DNA of 51,077 bases from Shigella phage ESh4, in sequence record ON528718; one strand, 5' to 3'. Within the stretch, counting starts at the first letter, position 1; each line of letters begins with the position of its first letter. Position numbers and translations under genes: made by a program. Below the pieces are notes generated by a model. That model was not told where the DNA came from, searched no databases, and saw only the letters and a list, made by a program, of their open reading frames with translations. Positions 4,192 through 50,812 of this stretch are shown here, piece after piece.

Positions 4192-4237
4192 ATTATGGCG
4201 CAATCCTTCGCGCCTGTTTTAACAAAAAGTGCTATTT
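4192..4237 (-). promoter_or_regulatory. conserved promoter-like unit
   Basis: Sense: AAATAGCACTTTTTGTTAAAAC-AGGCGCGAAGGATTGCGC-CATAAT, hairpin GGCGC/GCGCC in spacer; 35 nt upstream of Dam start. Confidence 0.55.
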
Positions 4238-4651
4238 CATCATGTATTCTACCGCGATCATGAATTGCTTATATCCGTATGTTACGGCAGCGAATCCGCC
4301 AAGCTCACGCACACGACGCAAGAAGGCTTTTTGCTCCTTGCTTACTTGTGATGCCTTACCCTTGCCGGACTTATTGACGCGCTTCATCTCTATTGCCGCG
4401 AAAGGGTAACGGCCTTTTAATCCAATCAGGATGATAAAATCACTTACGCCCTTAACAAGCCCAGCTTGCTGATCCATCATTGCGGTGGCGATCCCCTTTT
4501 CCCCCTCATTTTTAGTATGCCATGCCAGCAATTCAGGATGAGCATAAGTTACCCATTGAAACGCGCCTATCTGATGCGATTCTTCTTTTAGTGTATCTGT
4601 CGGATCTCTTTCGTAAAACTCCAGATAATCGCCTTTATCAGTCATTGCCAT
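4232..4651 (-). CDS. VRR-NUC domain nuclease
   Basis: VRR-NUC-like core (SDFIILIGLKGRYPFAAIEMKRV...GKASQVSKEQKAFL); start moved to ATG at 4651 with AAGGA RBS to avoid 47-nt overlap with helicase. Confidence 0.65.
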   Translation of the reverse strand: MAMTDKGDYLEFYERDPTDTLKEESHQIGAFQWVTYAHPELLAWHTKNEGEKGIATAMMDQQAGLVKGVSDFIILIGLKGRYPFAAIEMKRVNKSGKGKASQVSKEQKAFLRRVRELGGFAAVTYGYKQFMIAVEYMMK

Positions 4652-6677
4652 AATTAAATTCCTTCTTGTACAAATTATCTTCACCCTTGCTAGTCTTGCG
4701 GTGAGTTACACGCGATGGTGGCATGATGTGATTCACATATTGCATGATTTTACGTGCATTACGATAGCTCGCCACCATGCCAGCAACACGGCGATCTGGT
4801 ATGTGCTTAAGAGCAACGCTTCGCCATTTTGCGCGGCAAATTTGGCTCTCAGATTCAGGGAAAAATATCTCTCTCGCCCTGAAAGTGTCTATGCCATCGG
4901 AAAGCTCATAATTAAATATTATCCCTTTCTGGTTTTTCGTCATGTCAACCGAGAAAGATTGCACCTGAAACCAGTCGTTTTTTGTGTAGTGCTTTCCGCT
5001 TAACTTCTCGTTAGGGTCAATCAATGACATGTCGCAATGTCTGCATACCCTGGCCGCAATATCATTTTTCGTTCCACAACCGCGCTGAATAATCTTTTTA
5101 GTGCGCGGGTCAATCTGATCATCGCATGTCCTGAATTTAAAGAACCACTCGCATCTGTTGCCGTTTTCGTCTACGTGCATACAGCGACGAGCATAATAGC
5201 TATTAAGAGTTCCGCAAATAGGGCAAGGCTTCGGATCTTTACCATTTCTGAATCGCTTCTGATGCTGCGCCTGTTCAAGTATCGGATCAAAATAAAGCTC
5301 GCCTAACTCATCCATCGTTCCTGAAAAATCCATTACGAGGTGATCATCTTTCTTGAATCCTTGCTCCTTATGCCACTTCTTAAGCAGTCGCATTCCACGC
5401 CCTAAAAGCTGAATCAGCAAAGTTAGCGATCCAATCTTACGCAGAATAACAGACGTATCCCAAAACGGCACGTTAACGCCAGTAGTTAGCGCCTGAACCT
5501 GGAAGATGTATTTTACCTTCCCTTCGTATGCTTCCCTCAACCACTCCTTGCGCTGATTGTCGCCAGTCTTACCAGTAATGATCCTGTAAGTAGTTCCAGG
5601 TGGCAACGCTGCCGCTGCCTCTTTGCAATGCCTTTCTCCTGCACATGTCACAAGTACGCCGTTGCGGTTTTTACAGATCTCGTGAACTTTCGCCATGATG
5701 CGCTTTGTCATGGTCGCTTCTTCATGAATTTTTTGTTCCATCCTGCGAAGCGTTTTAGCGTCAAAGTCTGCAACGCCATCCTCACTGGATGCCTCAAACT
5801 CTGAAAGGTCATACCCTAGATCGCCAACGTCGCCAAAATTTGTTGGCACAACAGAACCGAATTTGATCAGGTAGTTGGTGTCAATATTAGTAACCTGTTC
5901 ACGCCAGAATCCTTTCTGTTTTTTGTCTTCTACCAGGATCGGGACTACGCCGCGAAACTCCGATCCAGTCATGCCAAATATGCGCAGTTCATGGCCATAT
6001 GCTTTCCTGCATCGGCGCATCATTTCCATGATAATGACAGTGTATTGTGTGCGGCCTGTTCCCTCCATTGGCAAGCCATCCTCACCAATCAGGAACTCTT
6101 CGCATTCGTTATCGCTCGTTATGTCATAATCTGGATTTGGTACTTTTTCGCCTTTCTTCGTCGTCATTTGTAAAAATGATTCGTCTTTCTCTATTGCGTC
6201 GGCAAGGTCTTCCCAATCCACCTGGTGACACTCGTCAATCCCGATAACGTGCGGAACATAGTCGCCAAGCGCTTTAAACAGTCCATTAACTACAGTTCCC
6301 TCAGAACCAACAACTATCGGAAAGTATGCGCTTTTTGTCTTCAGTCCTGCGCAATAGATGGAGTTCGGCACGCCAAGATTTGTTATCTCTTCAGAATCCT
6401 GATCCACAATCTCAGCCTGGCGAGCAAGGACCATCATTTTTAATCCCATTTTCCGGCACTGGTGAGCAACCATTGCAAACATCAATGTTTTGCCAGCCGA
6501 TACGGACGCTTTAACAAAGAATGGATGCTCATAATTTTTCATACGTTTTGCGATCTCAGCGTATGCAACGCACTGGTAATGGTAAGGCACAATCTCGCCA
6601 ACAGTGAATCGCTCCTGAATGGATTTAATTACCGCTTCACCAAGTGCTGATATTTGCTTTTCAATGTTTGGAATCAT
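4638..6677 (-). CDS. SF2 DNA helicase with C-terminal zinc-ribbon
   Basis: Walker A (SVSAGKT), DExH box (IGIDECHQV), C-terminal Cys clusters (CPICG...C..C); start set at ATG 6677 (MIPNIEK) with AAAGG RBS, track start 6701. Confidence 0.8.
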   Translation of the reverse strand: MIPNIEKQISALGEAVIKSIQERFTVGEIVPYHYQCVAYAEIAKRMKNYEHPFFVKASVSAGKTLMFAMVAHQCRKMGLKMMVLARQAEIVDQDSEEITNLGVPNSIYCAGLKTKSAYFPIVVGSEGTVVNGLFKALGDYVPHVIGIDECHQVDWEDLADAIEKDESFLQMTTKKGEKVPNPDYDITSDNECEEFLIGEDGLPMEGTGRTQYTVIIMEMMRRCRKAYGHELRIFGMTGSEFRGVVPILVEDKKQKGFWREQVTNIDTNYLIKFGSVVPTNFGDVGDLGYDLSEFEASSEDGVADFDAKTLRRMEQKIHEEATMTKRIMAKVHEICKNRNGVLVTCAGERHCKEAAAALPPGTTYRIITGKTGDNQRKEWLREAYEGKVKYIFQVQALTTGVNVPFWDTSVILRKIGSLTLLIQLLGRGMRLLKKWHKEQGFKKDDHLVMDFSGTMDELGELYFDPILEQAQHQKRFRNGKDPKPCPICGTLNSYYARRCMHVDENGNRCEWFFKFRTCDDQIDPRTKKIIQRGCGTKNDIAARVCRHCDMSLIDPNEKLSGKHYTKNDWFQVQSFSVDMTKNQKGIIFNYELSDGIDTFRAREIFFPESESQICRAKWRSVALKHIPDRRVAGMVASYRNARKIMQYVNHIMPPSRVTHRKTSKGEDNLYKKEFNYGND

Positions 6678-6687
6678 TCTAAAACCT

Positions 6688-6715
6688 TTGAGTAATGCCA
6701 TTTAGCGTGTATAAT
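6688..6715 (+). promoter_or_regulatory. sigma70-like promoter for rightward block
   Basis: TTGAGT-16bp-TATAAT upstream of ORF 6767. Confidence 0.4.
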
Positions 6716-20517: not shown

Positions 20518-21114
20518 TTAAGCCTTATCTTCTGCATAACTCCCAGCAGACCAGATAGCTCCGCCGACGGTCCTTTGACCGTATGGCAATGGTATTGGGT
20601 ATCCTGCCGCCGTTGTGTTAACTGCACCGCCAAAAGCGTAAGACGGCTTATTTTCTGCTGATTGGGATGATAACCGCGACCCGCCTTGCTGTGGTGAAAT
20701 CATCTGCATTACGCCACCCAGCACCATAGCGCCACCCATCATGAAAGCAGACGATGCAAAAGCGCCCATCAAAGCAAGTGAGGAGCCGCCAGTGAAAAAT
20801 GCAGTCGCCATAATAACCGCCCCAAGAACAACCTGAAACAACCCGCCAGACTTTGATCCTGTTGGGATGGGGATAATCCTCACTTCCTTTGCGCATTGCC
20901 ACGCTTTTTCATCGTGCTGCCCTACATTATTACCGTCAACAAATACAGCATAACGCATTCGCGATCCTACTTCGCTTTGCATGTAGTCCTTGAATCCTTC
21001 CACCTGCGAAGATAGCGCACGGATTGCTTCAGGGTATGAGTCAACAGCCAGCTTATGAAATACACCAAATCTTCGCCCTAAAGATCCAGATAATTTAATC
21101 GTTTTCAGTGTCAT
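20518..21114 (-). CDS. tail assembly protein I (lambda gpI-like)
   Basis: C-terminal Gly/Ala-rich hydrophobic region typical of gpI; start at ATG 21114 (track M is GTG at 21120). Confidence 0.6.
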   Translation of the reverse strand: MTLKTIKLSGSLGRRFGVFHKLAVDSYPEAIRALSSQVEGFKDYMQSEVGSRMRYAVFVDGNNVGQHDEKAWQCAKEVRIIPIPTGSKSGGLFQVVLGAVIMATAFFTGGSSLALMGAFASSAFMMGGAMVLGGVMQMISPQQGGSRLSSQSAENKPSYAFGGAVNTTAAGYPIPLPYGQRTVGGAIWSAGSYAEDKA

Positions 21115-21667
21115 AATCACCTCTACTTTTTCTTAACGCGACGATTGCAGGCGCTATGTACTTTAAAAATTCCTCGTGCGTGTAGTTATGCATTCGCGTT
21201 ACGTTGCAAAGCTGGCAGCAAGTGACGCAATTATCTTTAGTGTGTCCTTTTGTGTTATCTATCCTGTCGAAGCCGTTACATAGTGGATCTATGTATCCGC
21301 AGTATACGCAAGGCTTTACTAGTTCCTTAATGCAGTAATCAACATCCAAATCATTCTCAAGATTCTTTTTTTTATCTATTTTTTGGTAGCCTTTTAGTCT
21401 TAATATTTGCGGATTGTTGATTCTGTATCTTCTGCCGTATTCGCTTTTTTTAGCCTTTCCCTCTGGCGTACTGAGCAATCTTTTGTTGTATGCTCTCTGG
21501 CTTGCAAGATACTTGTCCTTGTTGTCCCCCTTCCATTTCTTTTGCCTGTCGTAGTCGCATGTTTTGCATTTATTCCTATGACCATCGGCGCAAGTCTTCG
21601 CCTTCGGAAACTCGCTTAATTTTTTAACCTCTCCGCAGACGTTGCATTTCTTCTCTACTGTCAACAT
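21095..21667 (-). CDS. HNH endonuclease inserted in tail module
   Basis: Cys pairs (CNVCG...CKTC) and HNH-type core (CVYCG...GFDRIDNTKGHTKDNCVTCCQLCN); overlaps both neighbours. Confidence 0.7.
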   Translation of the reverse strand: MLTVEKKCNVCGEVKKLSEFPKAKTCADGHRNKCKTCDYDRQKKWKGDNKDKYLASQRAYNKRLLSTPEGKAKKSEYGRRYRINNPQILRLKGYQKIDKKKNLENDLDVDYCIKELVKPCVYCGYIDPLCNGFDRIDNTKGHTKDNCVTCCQLCNVTRMHNYTHEEFLKYIAPAIVALRKSRGDYDTEND

Positions 21668-34939: not shown

Positions 34940-36508
34940 CTATTTGTTCCGCAAACCTGCCAATTTTTTCATTCTTCCTACCGGATCATCTGCCATGTTC
35001 ATTTCAATGTTAACAGCATCAATGATGTTATCAACAATATCATCATGAGGATGGCTATCATCGAATGTAAACGCCGCAACTTCAGCGAGAATCTCAGCCA
35101 GCATAGGATGAGATTCTGGAAGTGCCACGCGTCCGGCGCGCATTACTGGTGCTGCGTCCATTGCGCGAGTAACCTTGTCTTTATCTCGCTGAACTGGATT
35201 GATCTTGATCATGATTTTTTTCGCTGCGCTCTGAATCAAGCCAGTGCCAGATGACTTGTCTTCAACATGAATCCTTCGCAACGTTCCGCATTCTTTATTG
35301 CGCTTCCAGCACTGATTAACGAACGCAACAAAATTCGTCTCAAGGTCCGGTGCTTCCCATTTTCCGCGAACGCCATCAATGAAGTAGACACGATCTTTAT
35401 ACATCCCCCAATAACAGATCACGGAATAGTCGTTAAGCTCACCTGTTTTCTGCGCGGTATCAACCGTGATAAATGTATATTCAAAGCGATCCGGTTTTGG
35501 TAGTGTGCATTTCTCGCTGCTGCCGTAATACTGAAACCACTCTGTTTTAAACACGTTGCCGCCAAGCGCAACAGGCTGTTGCTGATACTGACTAGCGAAC
35601 GTGTACGGATCAGCATTTCGAAGTGCAAGTAATTCCTCCGCGCTTTCCTTAGCAGGCCAGAATGAATAATGAGCAACTCCATCAATCATCACTGGCTTAC
35701 TGGACAAAACATCGCGATCAAACTCAGGCTTTAACCAATCAGGAAGCGTTTCGCGATATTCCTTAGTAACTAGCGCCGGAATACTGACCACCTTAAACTG
35801 GATGCCGCCCATGCCGCCGTTTGTCATGAACCATGTTGAATCATTGACGTGTAGCCGTTGCTGGACCATTACGATTGGCGTTGTGTCCTTCATTCTACGC
35901 GATCGCACCGTGTTCTTTAGGCGCATGTGTCCGGCTTCGCGCTTCACCTTAGAAAGCATATCATCCGGTTTGTCTGGATCATCAAGAACCAGCATACCAG
36001 TAAATCCATCGTCCATGTAGCCGCCACGCAGACCAGTAACCTGACCACCGATAGAGCGCGAGTTAACTTGCAATTTAACCTTGCCACCATCGGTTACAAT
36101 TAAATCCTTTGCGCTCGCCTTCGCCAGTTTTCCAGGCCATAGCTCCTGCCATTCTGGAGAACCAATAATCTCTTTGATGCGGTTGCTATTCTGCTGGACA
36201 AGGCCATCACTAAACGAAAGATTAAGATTTCGCACCTTCTTACTTTTCAATGACGCATAAGGTGACATGTGGATCGAGAATATCTCTGTTTTACCGCTGC
36301 CTGGCGTTATGTTGAAAATTACGTTTTGTGACTCGCCTTTGATGATTTTTTCAACTTCGCTGCATAGGTAGCTGAAATGCCAGTTTCCTAAGAATTTCTG
36401 ACCTTGCAATAATTGAAACCAAATGCGGATCATCTTTTCGAATGAATATTCGCTCATTTCCTTAACGGCGCGTTTCTGCGCCGCTGTTAAGTCTTCCCAA
36501 ATCAGCAT
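34940..36508 (-). CDS. terL: terminase large subunit
   Basis: Walker A-like ITPGSGKT, Walker B-like LVLDDPD, C-terminal nuclease-like acidic residues; 522 aa. Confidence 0.85.
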   Translation of the reverse strand: MLIWEDLTAAQKRAVKEMSEYSFEKMIRIWFQLLQGQKFLGNWHFSYLCSEVEKIIKGESQNVIFNITPGSGKTEIFSIHMSPYASLKSKKVRNLNLSFSDGLVQQNSNRIKEIIGSPEWQELWPGKLAKASAKDLIVTDGGKVKLQVNSRSIGGQVTGLRGGYMDDGFTGMLVLDDPDKPDDMLSKVKREAGHMRLKNTVRSRRMKDTTPIVMVQQRLHVNDSTWFMTNGGMGGIQFKVVSIPALVTKEYRETLPDWLKPEFDRDVLSSKPVMIDGVAHYSFWPAKESAEELLALRNADPYTFASQYQQQPVALGGNVFKTEWFQYYGSSEKCTLPKPDRFEYTFITVDTAQKTGELNDYSVICYWGMYKDRVYFIDGVRGKWEAPDLETNFVAFVNQCWKRNKECGTLRRIHVEDKSSGTGLIQSAAKKIMIKINPVQRDKDKVTRAMDAAPVMRAGRVALPESHPMLAEILAEVAAFTFDDSHPHDDIVDNIIDAVNIEMNMADDPVGRMKKLAGLRNK

Positions 36509-45716: not shown

Positions 45717-45989
45717 GTGAACATCAGCAAAACCACTTTCAACTTTGCAAAGCGTCACGGTCTGGATCTGACTGTTGAAGACTTCGGCGATGTTCTGCAA
45801 CTCTGCATTTGGGAAGCGGATAACGATTGCGAGTGGCTTTGCTCTTATCGTATCAATTACGATTGCTTAACCTGGCACGGTAATATCTATCTGCCGCAAG
45901 AAGTGAAAGAGGAATTGCCAGCTACCATCAATAATGAAGTGTTTTTGCGCAAAGTCCTGAAGTTTATTGCTGATGAGATCAAGAAATGA
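45717..45989 (+). CDS. hypothetical protein (90 aa)
   Basis: ORF with AGGAGACGG RBS, GTG start. Confidence 0.5.
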   Translation: MNISKTTFNFAKRHGLDLTVEDFGDVLQLCIWEADNDCEWLCSYRINYDCLTWHGNIYLPQEVKEELPATINNEVFLRKVLKFIADEIKK

Positions 45990-46231
45990 TTAGTGAAGTG
46001 GATTTTGAACTTGCCGAGGCCCAGGTAAGGGCCAAAAAGATGGGTTTGCGTATACTGACGAAAACCGTGGAGTTTCCGTCGATGCCGTTCGCATCATTCC
46101 ATAAAGTGACGGTGTTCAGTAGCAAACGCGAGTTTAACGCGCTAATCCCTGCTGGTGATGATAAGCGCATGGCAAAATTTATTAACGAGTCCTGTGATGT
46201 TCTGATGGCAGTTAAACACGATCAACAATGA
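45986..46231 (+). CDS. hypothetical protein (81 aa)
   Basis: ORF track, ATGA overlap with upstream gene. Confidence 0.5.
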   Translation: MISEVDFELAEAQVRAKKMGLRILTKTVEFPSMPFASFHKVTVFSSKREFNALIPAGDDKRMAKFINESCDVLMAVKHDQQ

Positions 46232-46244
46232 AGGAGAAATAAAG

Positions 46245-46511
46245 ATGGCGCGAATCAATGCACCTATTCCAGTTAAGCGCAAAGCACGACTGCTTAACAA
46301 TGGATGTTACGCCCTGCGGCCTGATTTTAAAAAACGCACCTTTCCGGTTATCGTCAACGTGTCGCACGTAAGCCGTAGCGGGAATCTGGCCTTTGTTAAC
46401 GGTGAAGATCTGGCGGCGCTTGGATTCTATGGCGGTATTTACGGCGAACCGCTCGGATTCTGGCTTGTAAATCCGTCAACTGGAGAACGTGAAATCGAAT
46501 TCCTGGACTAA
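46245..46511 (+). CDS. hypothetical protein (88 aa)
   Basis: ORF with GGAGAAATAAAG RBS; stop TAA abuts conserved element. Confidence 0.5.
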   Translation: MARINAPIPVKRKARLLNNGCYALRPDFKKRTFPVIVNVSHVSRSGNLAFVNGEDLAALGFYGGIYGEPLGFWLVNPSTGEREIEFLD

Positions 46512-46555
46512 ATAGCATTTTTTGTTAAAACCGATGCGCCTATGATTGGTATATT
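46510..46555 (+). promoter_or_regulatory. conserved promoter-like unit
   Basis: AAATAGCATTTTTTGTTAAAAC + 22 bp + TATATT; -10 lies in loop of CGATGCGC...GCGCATCG dyad. Confidence 0.55.
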
Positions 46556-46586
46556 ATGCGCATCGACAACGAACGAGGATTTAAAA

Positions 46587-46751
46587 ATGGAAACACAGGT
46601 TGATGTTAAAGTTATTAAGCGCGACAAATCTCACGAGAAAGGAATCTTTAAGAAAGGCACTATCATCACCATTGATCTTGAGGATATGGAGGCTTACCAC
46701 TCAGGTCTAACTTGGAACGTGCGCAAATGTGAAAACGGCCTGTTCAAGTAA
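46587..46751 (+). CDS. hypothetical protein (54 aa, trimmed)
   Basis: ATG 46587 with GAGGA RBS; track start 46542 would lie inside the promoter unit. Confidence 0.4.
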   Translation: METQVDVKVIKRDKSHEKGIFKKGTIITIDLEDMEAYHSGLTWNVRKCENGLFK

Positions 46752-46783
46752 AATGGCTTTGAAACATACATGGAGATCATCTA

Positions 46784-46984
46784 ATGGCAAAGAAATTAAA
46801 ACTTAAATGCGTAGAAACTTATAACTCAACTTGGAAATTCACGCGAGGGAAAGAATACCCAATAATGGGAAATCTCAAAGAAGATCCTCATTTAATTTCA
46901 GATAATTGTTTAATGGAATGCAACGATGGATATATCGGTGCTGGTGTTCCAGGCCATAAATTTAAGCTGAAAAATAAGAAATGA
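46784..46984 (+). CDS. hypothetical protein (66 aa)
   Basis: ORF track; Lys-rich. Confidence 0.45.
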   Translation: MAKKLKLKCVETYNSTWKFTRGKEYPIMGNLKEDPHLISDNCLMECNDGYIGAGVPGHKFKLKNKK

Positions 46985-47080
46985 GGCTATTTATTTTCAA
47001 AAACGCTTGGATGGTGGCGGTTGCAAATGACCATTATGGTGGAGACGGCAAGCGAGCAAATCGCCATAGCTATTTCAACT

Positions 47081-47124
47081 AATAGCACGAATTGCTAAAC
47101 AATATTTCTCAAACCTGGTATAGT
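47081..47124 (+). promoter_or_regulatory. conserved promoter-like unit (variant)
   Basis: AATAGCACGAATTGCTAAAC + 21 bp + TATAGT. Confidence 0.5.
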
Positions 47125-47154
47125 TACCACGCCAAATATAATGAGGATTGCATA

Positions 47155-47382
47155 ATGAAAGCTAAAGTCACTAACATCATGCACACTGTTGATGCACATC
47201 ACCGCGTCGCCATTAAGATGGATAAATCTTGCGGAATCAACCAGTTAACCATCACGAGTGGTAAAGGTGTGTTTGTTGTTGGCTCACATCCAGGTAGTAA
47301 AATCCGCAAATATACACGCGAAGAATTGATTAAATTGCTTGAAGAAAACAGCATGTTTATTGAAAGCTGGAAAGCTGTATGA
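47155..47382 (+). CDS. hypothetical protein (75 aa, trimmed)
   Basis: ATG 47155 with GAGGA RBS downstream of unit 47081-47124. Confidence 0.45.
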   Translation: MKAKVTNIMHTVDAHHRVAIKMDKSCGINQLTITSGKGVFVVGSHPGSKIRKYTREELIKLLEENSMFIESWKAV

Positions 47383-47389
47383 TTAATCA

Positions 47390-47417
47390 ATGGGAGATTT
47401 CCGCCTCCCATTTTATC
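47390..47417 (+). terminator. possible hairpin terminator/attenuator
   Basis: ATGGGAG-N8-CTCCCAT followed by TTTATC. Confidence 0.35.
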
Positions 47418-47429
47418 AATGGGGAATAA

Positions 47430-47543
47430 ATGATTAAGGCGCTTGATATTTTATTTGGTGTTATGATTGGCCTTGTGGGTTTGCTTGTTTTTACTGCCGG
47501 GCTTGTAATTATTATTGCTGTTATTAAGGAGTTTATTAAATGA
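47430..47543 (+). CDS. small membrane protein (37 aa, below track cutoff)
   Basis: ATG 47430 with GGGGAATAA RBS; single TMD (ILFGVMIGLVGLLVFTAGLVIIIAVI); stop overlaps next start. Confidence 0.35.
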   Translation: MIKALDILFGVMIGLVGLLVFTAGLVIIIAVIKEFIK

Positions 47544-47764
47544 GTCAAGACGGTTTTTTTGAGCGACTGCAAAAAGCGGAAGATGCCGGACTGAATAAAG
47601 AGGCTGCGCTTGAAGTGGCATATAAGATCAGGACGCTTGATGATGCGCTTGGTGAAATGGATATGGATCATGAATGTGGCGCTGCGTTTGCAGATCCAAC
47701 GATGATTGTTAATGATTGTGGATGCAATTTTGATCCTAACTGTGCGCGATGCTTTCCGTTTTGA
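47540..47764 (+). CDS. hypothetical protein (74 aa, Cys-rich C-terminus)
   Basis: ORF with AAGGAG RBS; HECG...CGC...CARC motifs. Confidence 0.45.
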   Translation: MSQDGFFERLQKAEDAGLNKEAALEVAYKIRTLDDALGEMDMDHECGAAFADPTMIVNDCGCNFDPNCARCFPF

Positions 47765-47773
47765 GGTGATGAA

Positions 47774-48484
47774 ATGTATAAAGGTTTAATTTTCTCTTTG
47801 TTTGATGGATCTGGTAAAGCCGTTAAAGATTGGGCCGACGCTGGATATAAGTGCATTTGCTTTAATGCTGACGGTGGCGATCATGGTGATTACCAGTCAG
47901 TGCGCATACAGCATGAGAATATCGAATACGTTAACTTCTGGATTGATGAAAGATTTTACCACCGCGCGCGCTGGGAGGAATGGGGTATTCCTGACTTTAT
48001 TATGGCATTTCCTCCTTGCACACAATTAGCAAATAGCGGATCTCGTCATTGGGCTAAAAAGCGCGTGGAAAATCCTAACTTCCAGGATGAGGCCGCAGAC
48101 ACTTGCAAAATTGCGGCGCATATCGCTGATTATTTCGGTGTTCCGTACATGATAGAGAATCCTGTAGGAAAGTTATCAACGTTATGGCGGAAGCCTGATT
48201 ATACTTTCCATCCGTGCGATTATGCTGGCTATCTGCCGGAAGATGATAAGCATCCCGACTTCCCTGATATTATTCCGGCGCGGGATCGCTACTTTAAGAA
48301 AACATGCCTTTGGACTGGAAACGGATTTGTTATTCCTCCGCGCGCAACAATCCTTCCTAAAGAGGGCGACAAGGATAATCCTGGCTGGGCCAAAACTGGC
48401 GGAAAATCATCTCGCACAAAGATGATTCGCTCCCTCACACCGCGCGGTTTTGCTCGCGCCGTCTTTGAAGTAAACGCAAAATAG
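47774..48484 (+). CDS. DNA cytosine-5 methyltransferase-like protein (compact)
   Basis: Motif I-like LFDGSG, motif IV-like FPPCTQLANSG (Pro-Cys), motif VI-like MIENPVG; 236 aa; stop TAG inside conserved element. Confidence 0.5.
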   Translation: MYKGLIFSLFDGSGKAVKDWADAGYKCICFNADGGDHGDYQSVRIQHENIEYVNFWIDERFYHRARWEEWGIPDFIMAFPPCTQLANSGSRHWAKKRVENPNFQDEAADTCKIAAHIADYFGVPYMIENPVGKLSTLWRKPDYTFHPCDYAGYLPEDDKHPDFPDIIPARDRYFKKTCLWTGNGFVIPPRATILPKEGDKDNPGWAKTGGKSSRTKMIRSLTPRGFARAVFEVNAK

Positions 48485-48524
48485 CACTTTTTGTTAAAAG
48501 CCAGGTGTAAAAGCCTGGCATAAT
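48478..48524 (+). promoter_or_regulatory. conserved promoter-like unit with CCAGG/CCTGG hairpin
   Basis: AAATAGCACTTTTTGTTAAAAG-CCAGGTGTAAAAGCCTGG-CATAAT; 31 nt upstream of ORF 48556. Confidence 0.55.
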
Positions 48525-48555
48525 CACTTCACCGAAACGAAAGGAGGAATAAACG

Positions 48556-48942
48556 ATGAAAGTTATCTGCAATAAAACCAACGTTTTGATGAACGGTCGT
48601 TATAAAGCTGTATACGAAAAAATTGCTGGTAGCGATGATGTGATCGAGTTGGAACAATTCCAGGTAAAGAGCATTACAAAGGGTAGCAAGTGGCAAAACG
48701 CTGTTGAGTCTGACTATCGTCATATCAAGACAAAAACAATTAAATGCACCTTTGTAGATCACAAGATCCCGTGTAAAAAGCATTTCAAAGAAGGAAAGCG
48801 TTACCAGATTGAGCAAGGTCGCGCTCTTGGTGCTGTTGCTGGTTATGTTTTTGATGAAGCTGGCGACCGCTGGACGCTATACCGCGAAGAAGTAGGATTT
48901 TCCGCTGGTGGCTGTCATTTGTTTGAGGCTATGTATAAGTGA
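48556..48942 (+). CDS. hypothetical protein (128 aa)
   Basis: ORF with AAAGGAGGAATAAACG RBS. Confidence 0.5.
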   Translation: MKVICNKTNVLMNGRYKAVYEKIAGSDDVIELEQFQVKSITKGSKWQNAVESDYRHIKTKTIKCTFVDHKIPCKKHFKEGKRYQIEQGRALGAVAGYVFDEAGDRWTLYREEVGFSAGGCHLFEAMYK

Positions 48943-49160
48943 TCAAGACTGAATATCGCTATAAGGTGACTTATTCAGCAACAAAAACCTTCAAGCCTGG
49001 CGATATAGTCAGGCCAATAAAGAAAACGACGGTTGGATGGCTGATTGGTCTTTCTTACCACAAATCACTTTATTTTGATTTTGCTGATTCCGTAACCGCG
49101 CATTGCCATAGCGCAAGGGAACCAGAAAAAATCTTGGTTAGCATAGAGCGGATCAAATAG
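48939..49160 (+). CDS. hypothetical protein (73 aa)
   Basis: ORF track; stop TAG inside conserved element. Confidence 0.45.
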   Translation: MIKTEYRYKVTYSATKTFKPGDIVRPIKKTTVGWLIGLSYHKSLYFDFADSVTAHCHSAREPEKILVSIERIK

Positions 49161-49200
49161 CATTTTTTGTTAAATGCGGGTAGCATTGTTGCGGTATTAT
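49155..49200 (+). promoter_or_regulatory. conserved promoter-like unit
   Basis: AAATAGCATTTTTTGTTAAATG + 22 bp + TATTAT. Confidence 0.55.
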
Positions 49201-49228: not shown

Positions 49229-50812
49229 ATGAATTTTTCGTTTGAAACCAATAAACTAACACCAAAACAAATTATCGAATTAGCTGATGCACAAGGATTG
49301 TCTCCGGTGCGCGTGTCCATTCAGGCAAACGGATACCGTCAATCGTCCAGCTTTTGGGGTGAGGTTAATGATGTTAATAACGGAAACGATCGCTACCCTG
49401 TAATTTCTCTTGGCAATGATGTTGATATTGTTGGAAAGTTAGCGCGCAACATTGCTCGCTCTGTTCAATTCCCTGAATCATCGGCCTATATGCATTTTAT
49501 CGGCTGCGTGTCTGCTGCAATGCTTGGGCGATTCACGGTTGAGTATCACGGAACGGATCAGCCAACCGCTCTTTATGTTGTCACAAGTCAGCCTCCTTCA
49601 ACTGGTAAATCTGCCGTTAACAGCCTGGCTCTTGCTCCAATGGTTGCAGAAGTGGAAAGAATTAACGATCAGCGAAAGAAGGAAAGAAAAAAGATTCAGG
49701 CAAAGTTGGCAGGTCTTGCAAAAGAGATGAAAAGCGAGCGCTCCGGCGCTGATATGGAATCTCTGTACCAGGAGAAAGAAGATCTGGAAGAAAAACTGGA
49801 AAAGATGTGTGACATCGTTTTCCCTGTGTCCGACACCACGCCGGAAGGACTTGCAAGAATCAACAATCGCCAGGGTAACTTTGCTGTGATTTCAGACGAG
49901 GCAACAAGTATTAACAGCCTTTTAGGTCTGACATATGCCAATAGCGAACGTAAAACCAACAGCGAACTTGTTCTGAAAGCATGGGATCATGGTCATGTTT
50001 CTATAGCTCGTGCAAACGCTGACAACAATATGAGTTTTAAAGCTCTTGGCTGCATGGCGGTAATTGCCCAGGATGAAACAATCAATGCCATCATGGATGC
50101 AGGATCGCGAGGTATTGGTGTAAGTGAGCGTTATTTGCTTGTGCGTGAAGAATCATTTTTAGGTCGTCGAAAGTTTGTTGATGATAACGGTGATTCGACT
50201 TATGAGCCTGTTGATGGAGAACTGAAAAGCCAATATTTTAAGCTGATCCATAACATCATGAGTGAATCAAACATCCAGCTTAAGATCAGTAAATCAGCAA
50301 TGCGAGTTCTTAACATGGCTCGTCAGGAGATGGAGCCGCACCTTGCTGATGGAGGAAAGTATTCGCATACAATGCTGCGCGGTGCGCTTGGCAAAATGGA
50401 TAAGCAGGTGATCAGGATTGCTTCGGTTTTGCACACTATCCGCAATTGGTTTAATCCTGGTGGATACCCTCAGAAGTCGAAAGAGATTGAAGTTGAAACC
50501 GTTCAGGAAGCACTGTTGATGTTTAGCGAGTTGAGCAAAACATACATTAGCGCCGCCAACGCTTCTGGCTATGCTGGTGATGATGCTGAGATGGGTAAAC
50601 TAATCGAGATTATCACTCGACACGGTAAGGCTAACAAGGGGATCTTGAATGTGCGCGCCATATATGAGGCTGCACGAAAAGTTAAGCCGTTTGTTGGTCA
50701 GGCTGGCGTAATGAAGCGTATGGAAACGCAACTGCTGCCGATGCTTGAAGAAAGAAATTATATTTGTGTGATTAATGGCGTTGTTTTTGTAAATCCAACA
50801 TTGCTGGGGTAA
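49229..50812 (+). CDS. P-loop NTPase (DUF3987-like; possible replication/helicase-associated ATPase)
   Basis: Walker A-like VVTSQPPSTGKSAV and Walker B-like NFAVISDEAT; 527 aa; AAAAAAGGAG RBS. Confidence 0.5.
   Translation: MNFSFETNKLTPKQIIELADAQGLSPVRVSIQANGYRQSSSFWGEVNDVNNGNDRYPVISLGNDVDIVGKLARNIARSVQFPESSAYMHFIGCVSAAMLGRFTVEYHGTDQPTALYVVTSQPPSTGKSAVNSLALAPMVAEVERINDQRKKERKKIQAKLAGLAKEMKSERSGADMESLYQEKEDLEEKLEKMCDIVFPVSDTTPEGLARINNRQGNFAVISDEATSINSLLGLTYANSERKTNSELVLKAWDHGHVSIARANADNNMSFKALGCMAVIAQDETINAIMDAGSRGIGVSERYLLVREESFLGRRKFVDDNGDSTYEPVDGELKSQYFKLIHNIMSESNIQLKISKSAMRVLNMARQEMEPHLADGGKYSHTMLRGALGKMDKQVIRIASVLHTIRNWFNPGGYPQKSKEIEVETVQEALLMFSELSKTYISAANASGYAGDDAEMGKLIEIITRHGKANKGILNVRAIYEAARKVKPFVGQAGVMKRMETQLLPMLEERNYICVINGVVFVNPTLLG

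Follow-up and report, generated by a model that had tools for sequence, protein, structure and literature searches.

The closest described system is the small cytosine methyltransferase (Dcm) of T1-like coliphages, chiefly known for activating the bacterial retron defence Ec86/Eco1. Wang et al. (preprint 10.1101/2023.08.16.553469, later Cell Rep 43:114857, 2024) obtained Ec86 escapers from KarlJaspers strain Hzau42 (K42), and all four disrupt a 711-bp dcm gene: one by a deletion, one by a frameshift at G451, and two through a point mutation at position -9 from the start. Expression of Dcm was toxic only together with the retron, and Dcm did not slow the growth of MG1655 when the retron was missing. 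LC-MS demonstrated that the 5mC content of the msDNA was raised by Dcm and did not rise with a C82A/E128A/K175A/K176A mutant, while mutation of the CCTGG in the msDNA stem, at either C, abolished the defence. Dcm is encoded by 34 of the 35 Ec86-sensitive phages in that study, whose authors used DNMT3A as the template for modelling the enzyme. Later papers treat the Dcm-triggered mechanism of Ec86 as established.

Less agreement exists about the benefit of such enzymes to the phage. Olsen et al. proposed an anti-restriction role for the hanriverviruses, pointing to the resistance of pSf-1 to six or more restriction enzymes. In the BASEL collection, most Drexlerviridae were very sensitive to restriction-modification (RM) systems, with no simple relation to their methyltransferase genes. 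The next subsections compare the dcm gene of the present phage with these systems.

The dcm Gene and Its Known Orthologue

The stretch of DNA analysed here (51,077 nucleotides, hereafter the window) belongs to a T1-like coliphage, Hanrivervirus-like, of the family Drexlerviridae. Its dcm gene is the already-described small Dcm of these phages: because the window protein is orthologous to the characterised enzyme, the finding of a compact C5 methyltransferase gene, made in an earlier sequence-only reading, is correct and not new. The window protein is 91% identical to the Dcm of KarlJaspers Bas06 (QXV82308.1), with no gaps and 236 aa in both; Bas06 served as a proxy for the K42 sequence, the two genomes being 95.4% identical. 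The KarlJaspers gene has the same length of 711 bp, occupies the same slot upstream of a DUF3987 helicase and lies in a Hanrivervirus-type genome, whereas the window allele differs from that of Bas06 by 21 substitutions, mostly in residues 32-72. C82, E128, K175 and K176, the residues changed in the published mutant, are all conserved. The gene may confidently be annotated as a Dcm-like phage C5 methyltransferase and Ec86/Eco1 trigger, even though curated profiles miss it. By orthology, the window phage is predicted to be sensitive to Ec86 and its Dcm to methylate the msDNA stem-loop; strains with retron Eco1, E. coli BL21 for example, are thus predicted to restrict the phage.

The open reading frame (ORF) begins with ATG and comprises 236 codons and a stop codon (711 bp), at exactly the positions that had been proposed for it, and the three motifs that had been quoted, LFDGSG, FPPCTQLANSG and ENPVG, are all present (Table 1). 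The Shine-Dalgarno sequence overlaps the TGA stop codon (47762-47764) of a 74-aa upstream ORF. Position -9, mutated in two of the escapers, would fall inside this Shine-Dalgarno sequence in the window. A scan for promoters and terminators near dcm returned sites no more numerous than in shuffled sequence.

Table 1. Features of the dcm gene and its companions in the window
Feature	Position	Strand	Basis or remark
dcm, compact DNA C5-cytosine methyltransferase, 236 aa	47774..48484	+	ORF, motifs and PHROG 757
Shine-Dalgarno GAGGTG	47763..47768	+	5 nt 5' of ATG; sequence reading
Motif I, L-F-D-G-S-G, SAM-binding loop after strand 1	47798..47815	+	residues 9-14
Motif IV, F-P-P-C-T-Q-L-A-N-S-G	48008..48040	+	residues 79-89; Cys82 codon 48017-48019
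Motif VI, E-N-P-V-G	48155..48169	+	residues 128-132
Motif VIII-like segment, R170-D-R-Y-F-K175-K176-T-C-L-W180	48281..48313	+	ends in strand 7
Variable loop, sole candidate target-recognition element	48338..48397	+	residues 189-208, inside ~30-residue insert
Motif IX-like helix, M217-I-R-S-L-T-P-R-G-F-A-R-A-V230	48422..48463	+	conservation, weak Dcm match
DUF3987 DNA helicase, downstream synteny anchor of dcm	49229..50812	+	PHROG 2373 (1.7e-245), Pfam DUF3987
Companion orphan Dam, N6-adenine methyltransferase, 233 aa	3456..4157	-	Pfam PF05869

Conserved Motifs

Conservation was assessed in a 35-sequence profile and in a deeper alignment of 54 divergent representatives, which are 33-55% identical to the query. 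G12, S13 and G14 of motif I are invariant in the former, and the stretch matches the FxGxG of DNMT3B, M.HaeIII and E. coli Dcm. Cys82 of motif IV is invariant in both alignments and is aligned to the PC of the same three enzymes. In motif VI, the divergent representatives all have E128 and P130, and 90% or more of them have N129; the motif aligns with ENV in E. coli Dcm. The complete set of invariant residues across the 54 sequences is C82, E128, P130, P147, Y173, W180 and P188. At the end of strand 2, residue 31 is Asn in the close T1-like subfamily and Asp in at least 90% of the divergent family members; in canonical enzymes this position holds the acidic motif II residue, to which the ribose of SAM is bound.

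The canonical motif VIII, QxRxR, is absent from the window protein, which instead has a basic block, R170-D-x-Y-x-K175-K176-T, before strand 7. In this segment Y173 and W180 never vary, and conservation reaches at least 90% at D171, K175 and T177; nowhere is the family more conserved than in residues 170-188, which occupy the place of motif VIII, and the structure model has a strand at residues 177-182, the end of the segment. The block may be the counterpart of QxRxR, judging from the published superposition on DNMT3A.

Between strand 7 and the C-terminal helices lies an insert of only about 30 residues (181-211), mainly loop with one 4-residue helix, so that the minimal target-recognition domain (TRD) put forward by the sequence-only reading is correct. 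No separate TRD is present between motifs VIII and IX, where the ~30 most variable residues stand. Both conservation (mean top-residue frequency 0.38-0.51) and pLDDT (70) are lowest in the loop at residues 189-208, of which the family has two or more sequence types (DNPGW and GYSxQH).

In the motif IX-like helix, R219, S220, T222, P223, G225, F226 and A229 are all at least 90% conserved. The stretch RSLTPRGFAR resembles RRLTPRECAR of E. coli Dcm: a profile of the C-terminal part pairs KMIRSLTPRGFAR with HRPRRLTPRECAR (Dcm residues 397-409) over 13 residues, its sole match to the C-terminal part of that enzyme and not significant alone (E 0.4). No GN-x-V motif X is recognisable in the window protein, the chain of which ends 12 residues later; N234 is invariant only within the close subfamily. 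The last helix may be motif IX or a fused IX/X.

Family and Fold

In Pfam and NCBIfam the window protein has zero matches at E≤10, and PHROG 757, "DNA methyltransferase", matches it with E=2.3e-83. The family is large, with 2573 homologues in a 90%-clustered protein database and 2137 clusters of 50%-identity representatives at E≤1e-3, almost all of 200-260 aa; a member is found in about 1500 of 50,697 phage records (~3%). The PHROG match, the number of homologues and the invariance of C82 and E128 in the divergent representatives together exceed chance by far. Sub-threshold matches to PF00145 occur in only five of the 54 divergent members (best E 0.0039), and one closer relative (P0109) passes this model with 25.4 bits against the 22-bit threshold, over residues 6-91 only.

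When the PDB was searched with the single protein and with the 35- and 54-sequence profiles, nothing significant emerged (E 0.14-1.1), and the C-terminal-only profile gave no match there. The non-significant matches obtained with the single protein and the 35-sequence profile were all C5 DNA methyltransferases (DNMT3B, M.HaeIII), over motifs I-IV, whereas the deeper profile did worse, with a C5 methyltransferase in just one of its four weak matches.

The best structural match of the window protein is the C5 methyltransferase fold, with DNMT3A and DNMT3B closest, followed by DNMT1, M.HaeIII, M.MpeI and DNMT2. Against DNMT3A/DNMT3B (PDB 6u8p, 4u7t and 6f57) the identity is 15-18% and the Foldseek TM score ~0.45-0.55; the DNMT3 domains are ~285 aa long, form DNMT3L-assisted oligomers and read CpG. 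M.HhaI and M.HaeIII, the enzymes of PF00145, share with the window protein the fold and the order of motifs I, IV and VI and of the putative VIII and IX, but the window protein fails the Pfam model, has no recognisable GN motif X and devotes ~30 aa to its target-recognition region. The TRD of M.HhaI comprises roughly 80 aa or more. The motifs, the fold, the ~30-residue insert and the literature on the near-identical orthologue all support a compact C5 methyltransferase with a minimal target-recognition region.

The same fold comparison bears on a substrate other than DNA. That the protein methylates RNA, as a DNMT2-like tRNA m5C enzyme would, or that it is a dead methyltransferase-like protein that binds DNA, is very improbable: the DNA enzymes DNMT3, HhaI and HaeIII outscore DNMT2, and the msDNA 5mC was raised by the wild-type orthologue and not by its active-site mutant. 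Moreover, across more than 2000 clusters neither the catalytic Cys nor the ENV Glu nor the SAM loop varies, a pattern that speaks for purifying selection on catalysis.

A further relative to consider is CmoX (PDB 8yf3), which has the fold and the PPC motif in common with the window protein; it is distinguished by SPPC in motif IV, by R350 at the position of HhaI N304 and by the usual presence of CmoA and a ligase nearby (PMC12783734). A C5-carboxymethyltransferase of this type, using the carboxy-SAM made by E. coli CmoA, or an enzyme catalysing the first step of a hypermodification, is scarcely credible here, as motif IV reads FPPC, CmoA and the ligase are missing, and the product of the orthologue was measured as 5mC. 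Genes for CmoA, a ligase, ParB or TET-like proteins were found in none of the 21 ORFs of at least 180 aa that were scanned (29 listed, several overlapping). Hypermodification with TET/5mYOX or CmoA partners was rejected, no such gene being present among these scanned ORFs.

The compact fold also occurs as one domain of two much longer uncultured-phage proteins of BFVD, A0A6J5SE15 (1397 aa) and A0A6J5NPY6 (1126 aa), with 27-28% identity and TM ~0.63. Both are annotated "Helicase/UvrB N-terminal" and look like methylase-helicase fusions.

Mechanism and Target Specificity

The window Dcm is very probably a stand-alone SAM-dependent C5 methyltransferase reduced to approximately the catalytic Rossmann domain, which would act on CCWGG and thereby mask the phage's own DNA. 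According to the mechanism of the family, Cys82 of the P-P-C motif would attack C6 of the flipped-out cytosine while Glu128 of E-N-P protonates N3; SAM, held by the F-D-G-S-G loop, would donate the methyl group, and β-elimination would then free the 5mC. Phage DNA would in this way be kept CCWGG-methylated whatever the dcm status of the host, for example in dcm-minus E. coli B.

The site is assigned by analogy. E. coli Dcm, of the M.EcoRII type (472 aa), is alike in chemistry and presumed site, and its motifs I, IV and VI and the 13-residue motif IX align with those of the phage enzyme. The latter is half the size, and similarity to the TRD, or to any other part of the C-terminal half beyond the 13 residues of motif IX, is undetectable. 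The hhalign comparison of the family profile with K-12 Dcm covers residues 8-135 only (E 0.029, probability 1.7%), and neither hhalign nor the C-terminal profile found a homologue of the CCWGG-specifying TRD. Because there is no C-terminal homology beyond motif IX, "Dcm-like" is a functional label that does not imply orthology with the host enzyme. No vsr repair partner is annotated beside dcm in the closest annotated relative. Wang et al. likewise assumed CCWGG by analogy with the host Dcm, with the msDNA-site mutants as the only support (10.1101/2023.08.16.553469), and no relevant genome-wide methylome of any Drexlerviridae phage turned up in literature searches.

Of the rivals, only a different or relaxed DNA specificity carries real weight. 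The protein would still be an active DNA C5 methyltransferase, but its target would differ from the inner C of CCWGG methylated by the host Dcm, and could be a shorter or relaxed motif that overlaps CCTGG, the outer C, or preferentially hairpin or single-stranded DNA. We judge this to be unlikely, although several structural features point to it, namely the ~30 residues between motifs VIII and IX, the missing similarity to the TRD of E. coli Dcm, the two or more types of variable loop within the family, and the closest folds, DNMT3A/B, which use small loops to recognise a site of 2 bp. The retron experiments add to them: MG1655, the strain in which they were performed, carries the host dcm (the 472-aa K-12 Dcm), yet the empty-vector msDNA was low in 5mC and the retron did not trigger itself (10.1101/2023.08.16.553469). 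The preprint offers no discussion or explanation of this low msDNA 5mC in dcm+ cells. A different or relaxed specificity would explain why the phage Dcm, and not the host Dcm, triggers the retron.

Two other results of the same experiments stand against this rival. The defence was lost when either C of the msDNA CCTGG was changed, and the growth of MG1655 was not slowed by Dcm when the retron was missing. A promiscuous 5mC pattern is expected to provoke McrBC/Mrr.

A broader version of the rival concerns the whole family, which, on a view that we find possible but doubtful, may not be a miniature host Dcm at all; its DNMT3-like core with a ~30-residue loop might work as an oligomer, read a shorter or shifted motif, or gain access to hairpin or protein-bound DNA that is out of reach for the host Dcm. 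If true, this would explain how Ec86 tells the phage Dcm from the host Dcm in dcm+ cells, and the family would represent a separate, minimal design of enzyme that methylates cytosine sequence-specifically.

Palindrome Avoidance

Methylation of CCWGG, the preferred reading, can be compared with the restriction sites kept or lost by the phage. Palindrome avoidance is strong in the window (51,077 bases), with a median observed/expected ratio (O/E) of 0.53 for 6-mers and 0.81 for 4-mers. CAGCTG, CCGCGG, GCCGGC and TACGTA have zero sites; AAGCTT, GATATC, GGCGCC and TCCGGA have two each against 14-18 expected, and the O/E of GGCC is 0.53. GATC is the least avoided 4-bp palindrome (O/E 0.98, 276 sites). 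CCWGG is not avoided either (O/E 0.95), its 111 sites comparing with 67 expected from composition and 51 ± 7 from a first-order Markov model, whereas sites of the same composition are purged: CCSGG has 5 sites against 52 expected from composition, and GGWCC 14 against 67. The two spared sites, GATC and CCWGG, match the two methylases of the phage, and the sparing of CCWGG while CCSGG and GGWCC are purged argues against a different target.

The comparison was extended to 19 T1-like genomes or loci, consisting of the window, T1 and 17 helicase-anchored loci among the matches listed; the whole genomes of TLS and Rtp were left out of the statistics as duplicates of L011 and L019. The O/E of GATC is 0.51-1.07 where dam is present (n=12) and 0.14-0.36 where it is absent (n=6; Mann-Whitney p 0.0009, here and below for a small, phylogenetically clumped set and with no phylogenetic correction). 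Since the two ranges do not overlap, GATC and dam provide a clean positive control. For CCWGG the O/E has a median of 1.09 (0.77-1.37) in the 13 loci with dcm and of 0.88 (0.64-0.93) in the six lacking it (Mann-Whitney p 0.025), a contrast in the predicted direction that is weak, has overlapping ranges and is confounded with lineage and dam. Of the two discordant cases, the prediction holds for T1 (dam+, dcm-) and fails for L018 (dcm+, dam-), whose CCWGG O/E is 0.77. This weak tracking of dcm by CCWGG tolerance again speaks against a different target, and the comparative pattern fits weak selection for protection of CCWGG, although it is no proof.

Other sites show losses of their own. The Rtp-like phages, which have neither dam nor dcm, are purged of GATC. 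GGWCC is reduced to 0-1 sites, against 18-43 expected from composition, in many relatives (L008-L013, L022 and TLS, L005), and CCSGG to 0 of ~32 expected in L013 and L022 and to 0 in TLS, CCWGG still being abundant. CCSGG purging was rejected as a marker of dcm+ phages: L008 and L009 are dcm+ yet keep 35-40 CCSGG sites. The losses of GGWCC and CCSGG suggest lineage-specific pressure from restriction enzymes of the Eco47I/SinI type and the CCSGG/CCNGG type.

Proposed Anti-Restriction Benefit and the Price of Dcm

The sequence-only reading had further called two methyltransferases consistent with broad protection from restriction. This part is not supported, because a methylase of a single site masks only its own site, and because most Drexlerviridae proved RM-sensitive in BASEL. 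Narrow masking of CCWGG, together with GATC by Dam, is the most economical inference. Dcm would mask the sites of EcoRII-type enzymes and the CCWGG subset of those of CCNGG-type enzymes, and Dam would mask GATC. The known price is that retron Ec86/Eco1 uses Dcm activity as its alarm for infection, which illustrates a trade-off in which the enzyme that masks phage DNA becomes the signal for a second-line defence.

Genome Setting and the Companion Dam

The 2.2 kb around dcm are 91-94% identical in DNA to many T1-like coliphages, including phiE31-2, pSf-1, damhaus and the BASEL phages JakobBernoulli and KarlJaspers, the last classified as Drexlerviridae; Tempevirinae; Hanrivervirus. In these relatives the gene is annotated as "DNA methyltransferase" or "Dcm-like C5 cytosine methyltransferase". 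It sits ~1.3-1.9 kb upstream of the start of the helicase in 12 of the 17 related loci among the matches listed. In the window it is part of a one-directional run of small ORFs of 66-128 aa on the plus strand (45717-47764 and 48556-49160), which belong to PHROGs of unknown function or to no family. Because the 2.26-kb deletion of the published escaper mut#1 took dcm and three such small genes, the block is dispensable in the laboratory.

About 20-39 records labelled "Campylobacter phage" (host C. jejuni) also match the window in DNA, at 47000-49200 and 34940-36508, and the terminase of one, Campylobacter phage A15a (MG065638.1), is 91% identical to that of the window. These records are probably mislabelled or contaminant T1-like sequences. 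Among the tail genes, a minus-strand ORF of 190 aa (21095-21667) is endonuclease VII/HNH-like and overlaps the ends of its neighbours; it is probably a homing-endonuclease insertion like those annotated in Rtp and TLS.

The Dam-like gene reported together with dcm is real, with 203 bits against a cut-off of 28.1 for the Pfam Dam model (E 3.5e-60), but it lies on the minus strand, the plus reading being interrupted by stop codons. Its product is 69-72% identical to the Dam of T1 and TLS. The phage thus carries two orphan methyltransferases, as had been suggested, with no cognate nuclease near either gene. A 150-aa protein with a VRR-NUC nuclease domain (4232-4684, minus strand) is encoded between the Dam gene and a SNF2/ResIII-type helicase (4638-6701, minus strand), and this helicase/VRR-NUC/Dam arrangement is common to T1, Rtp and TLS.
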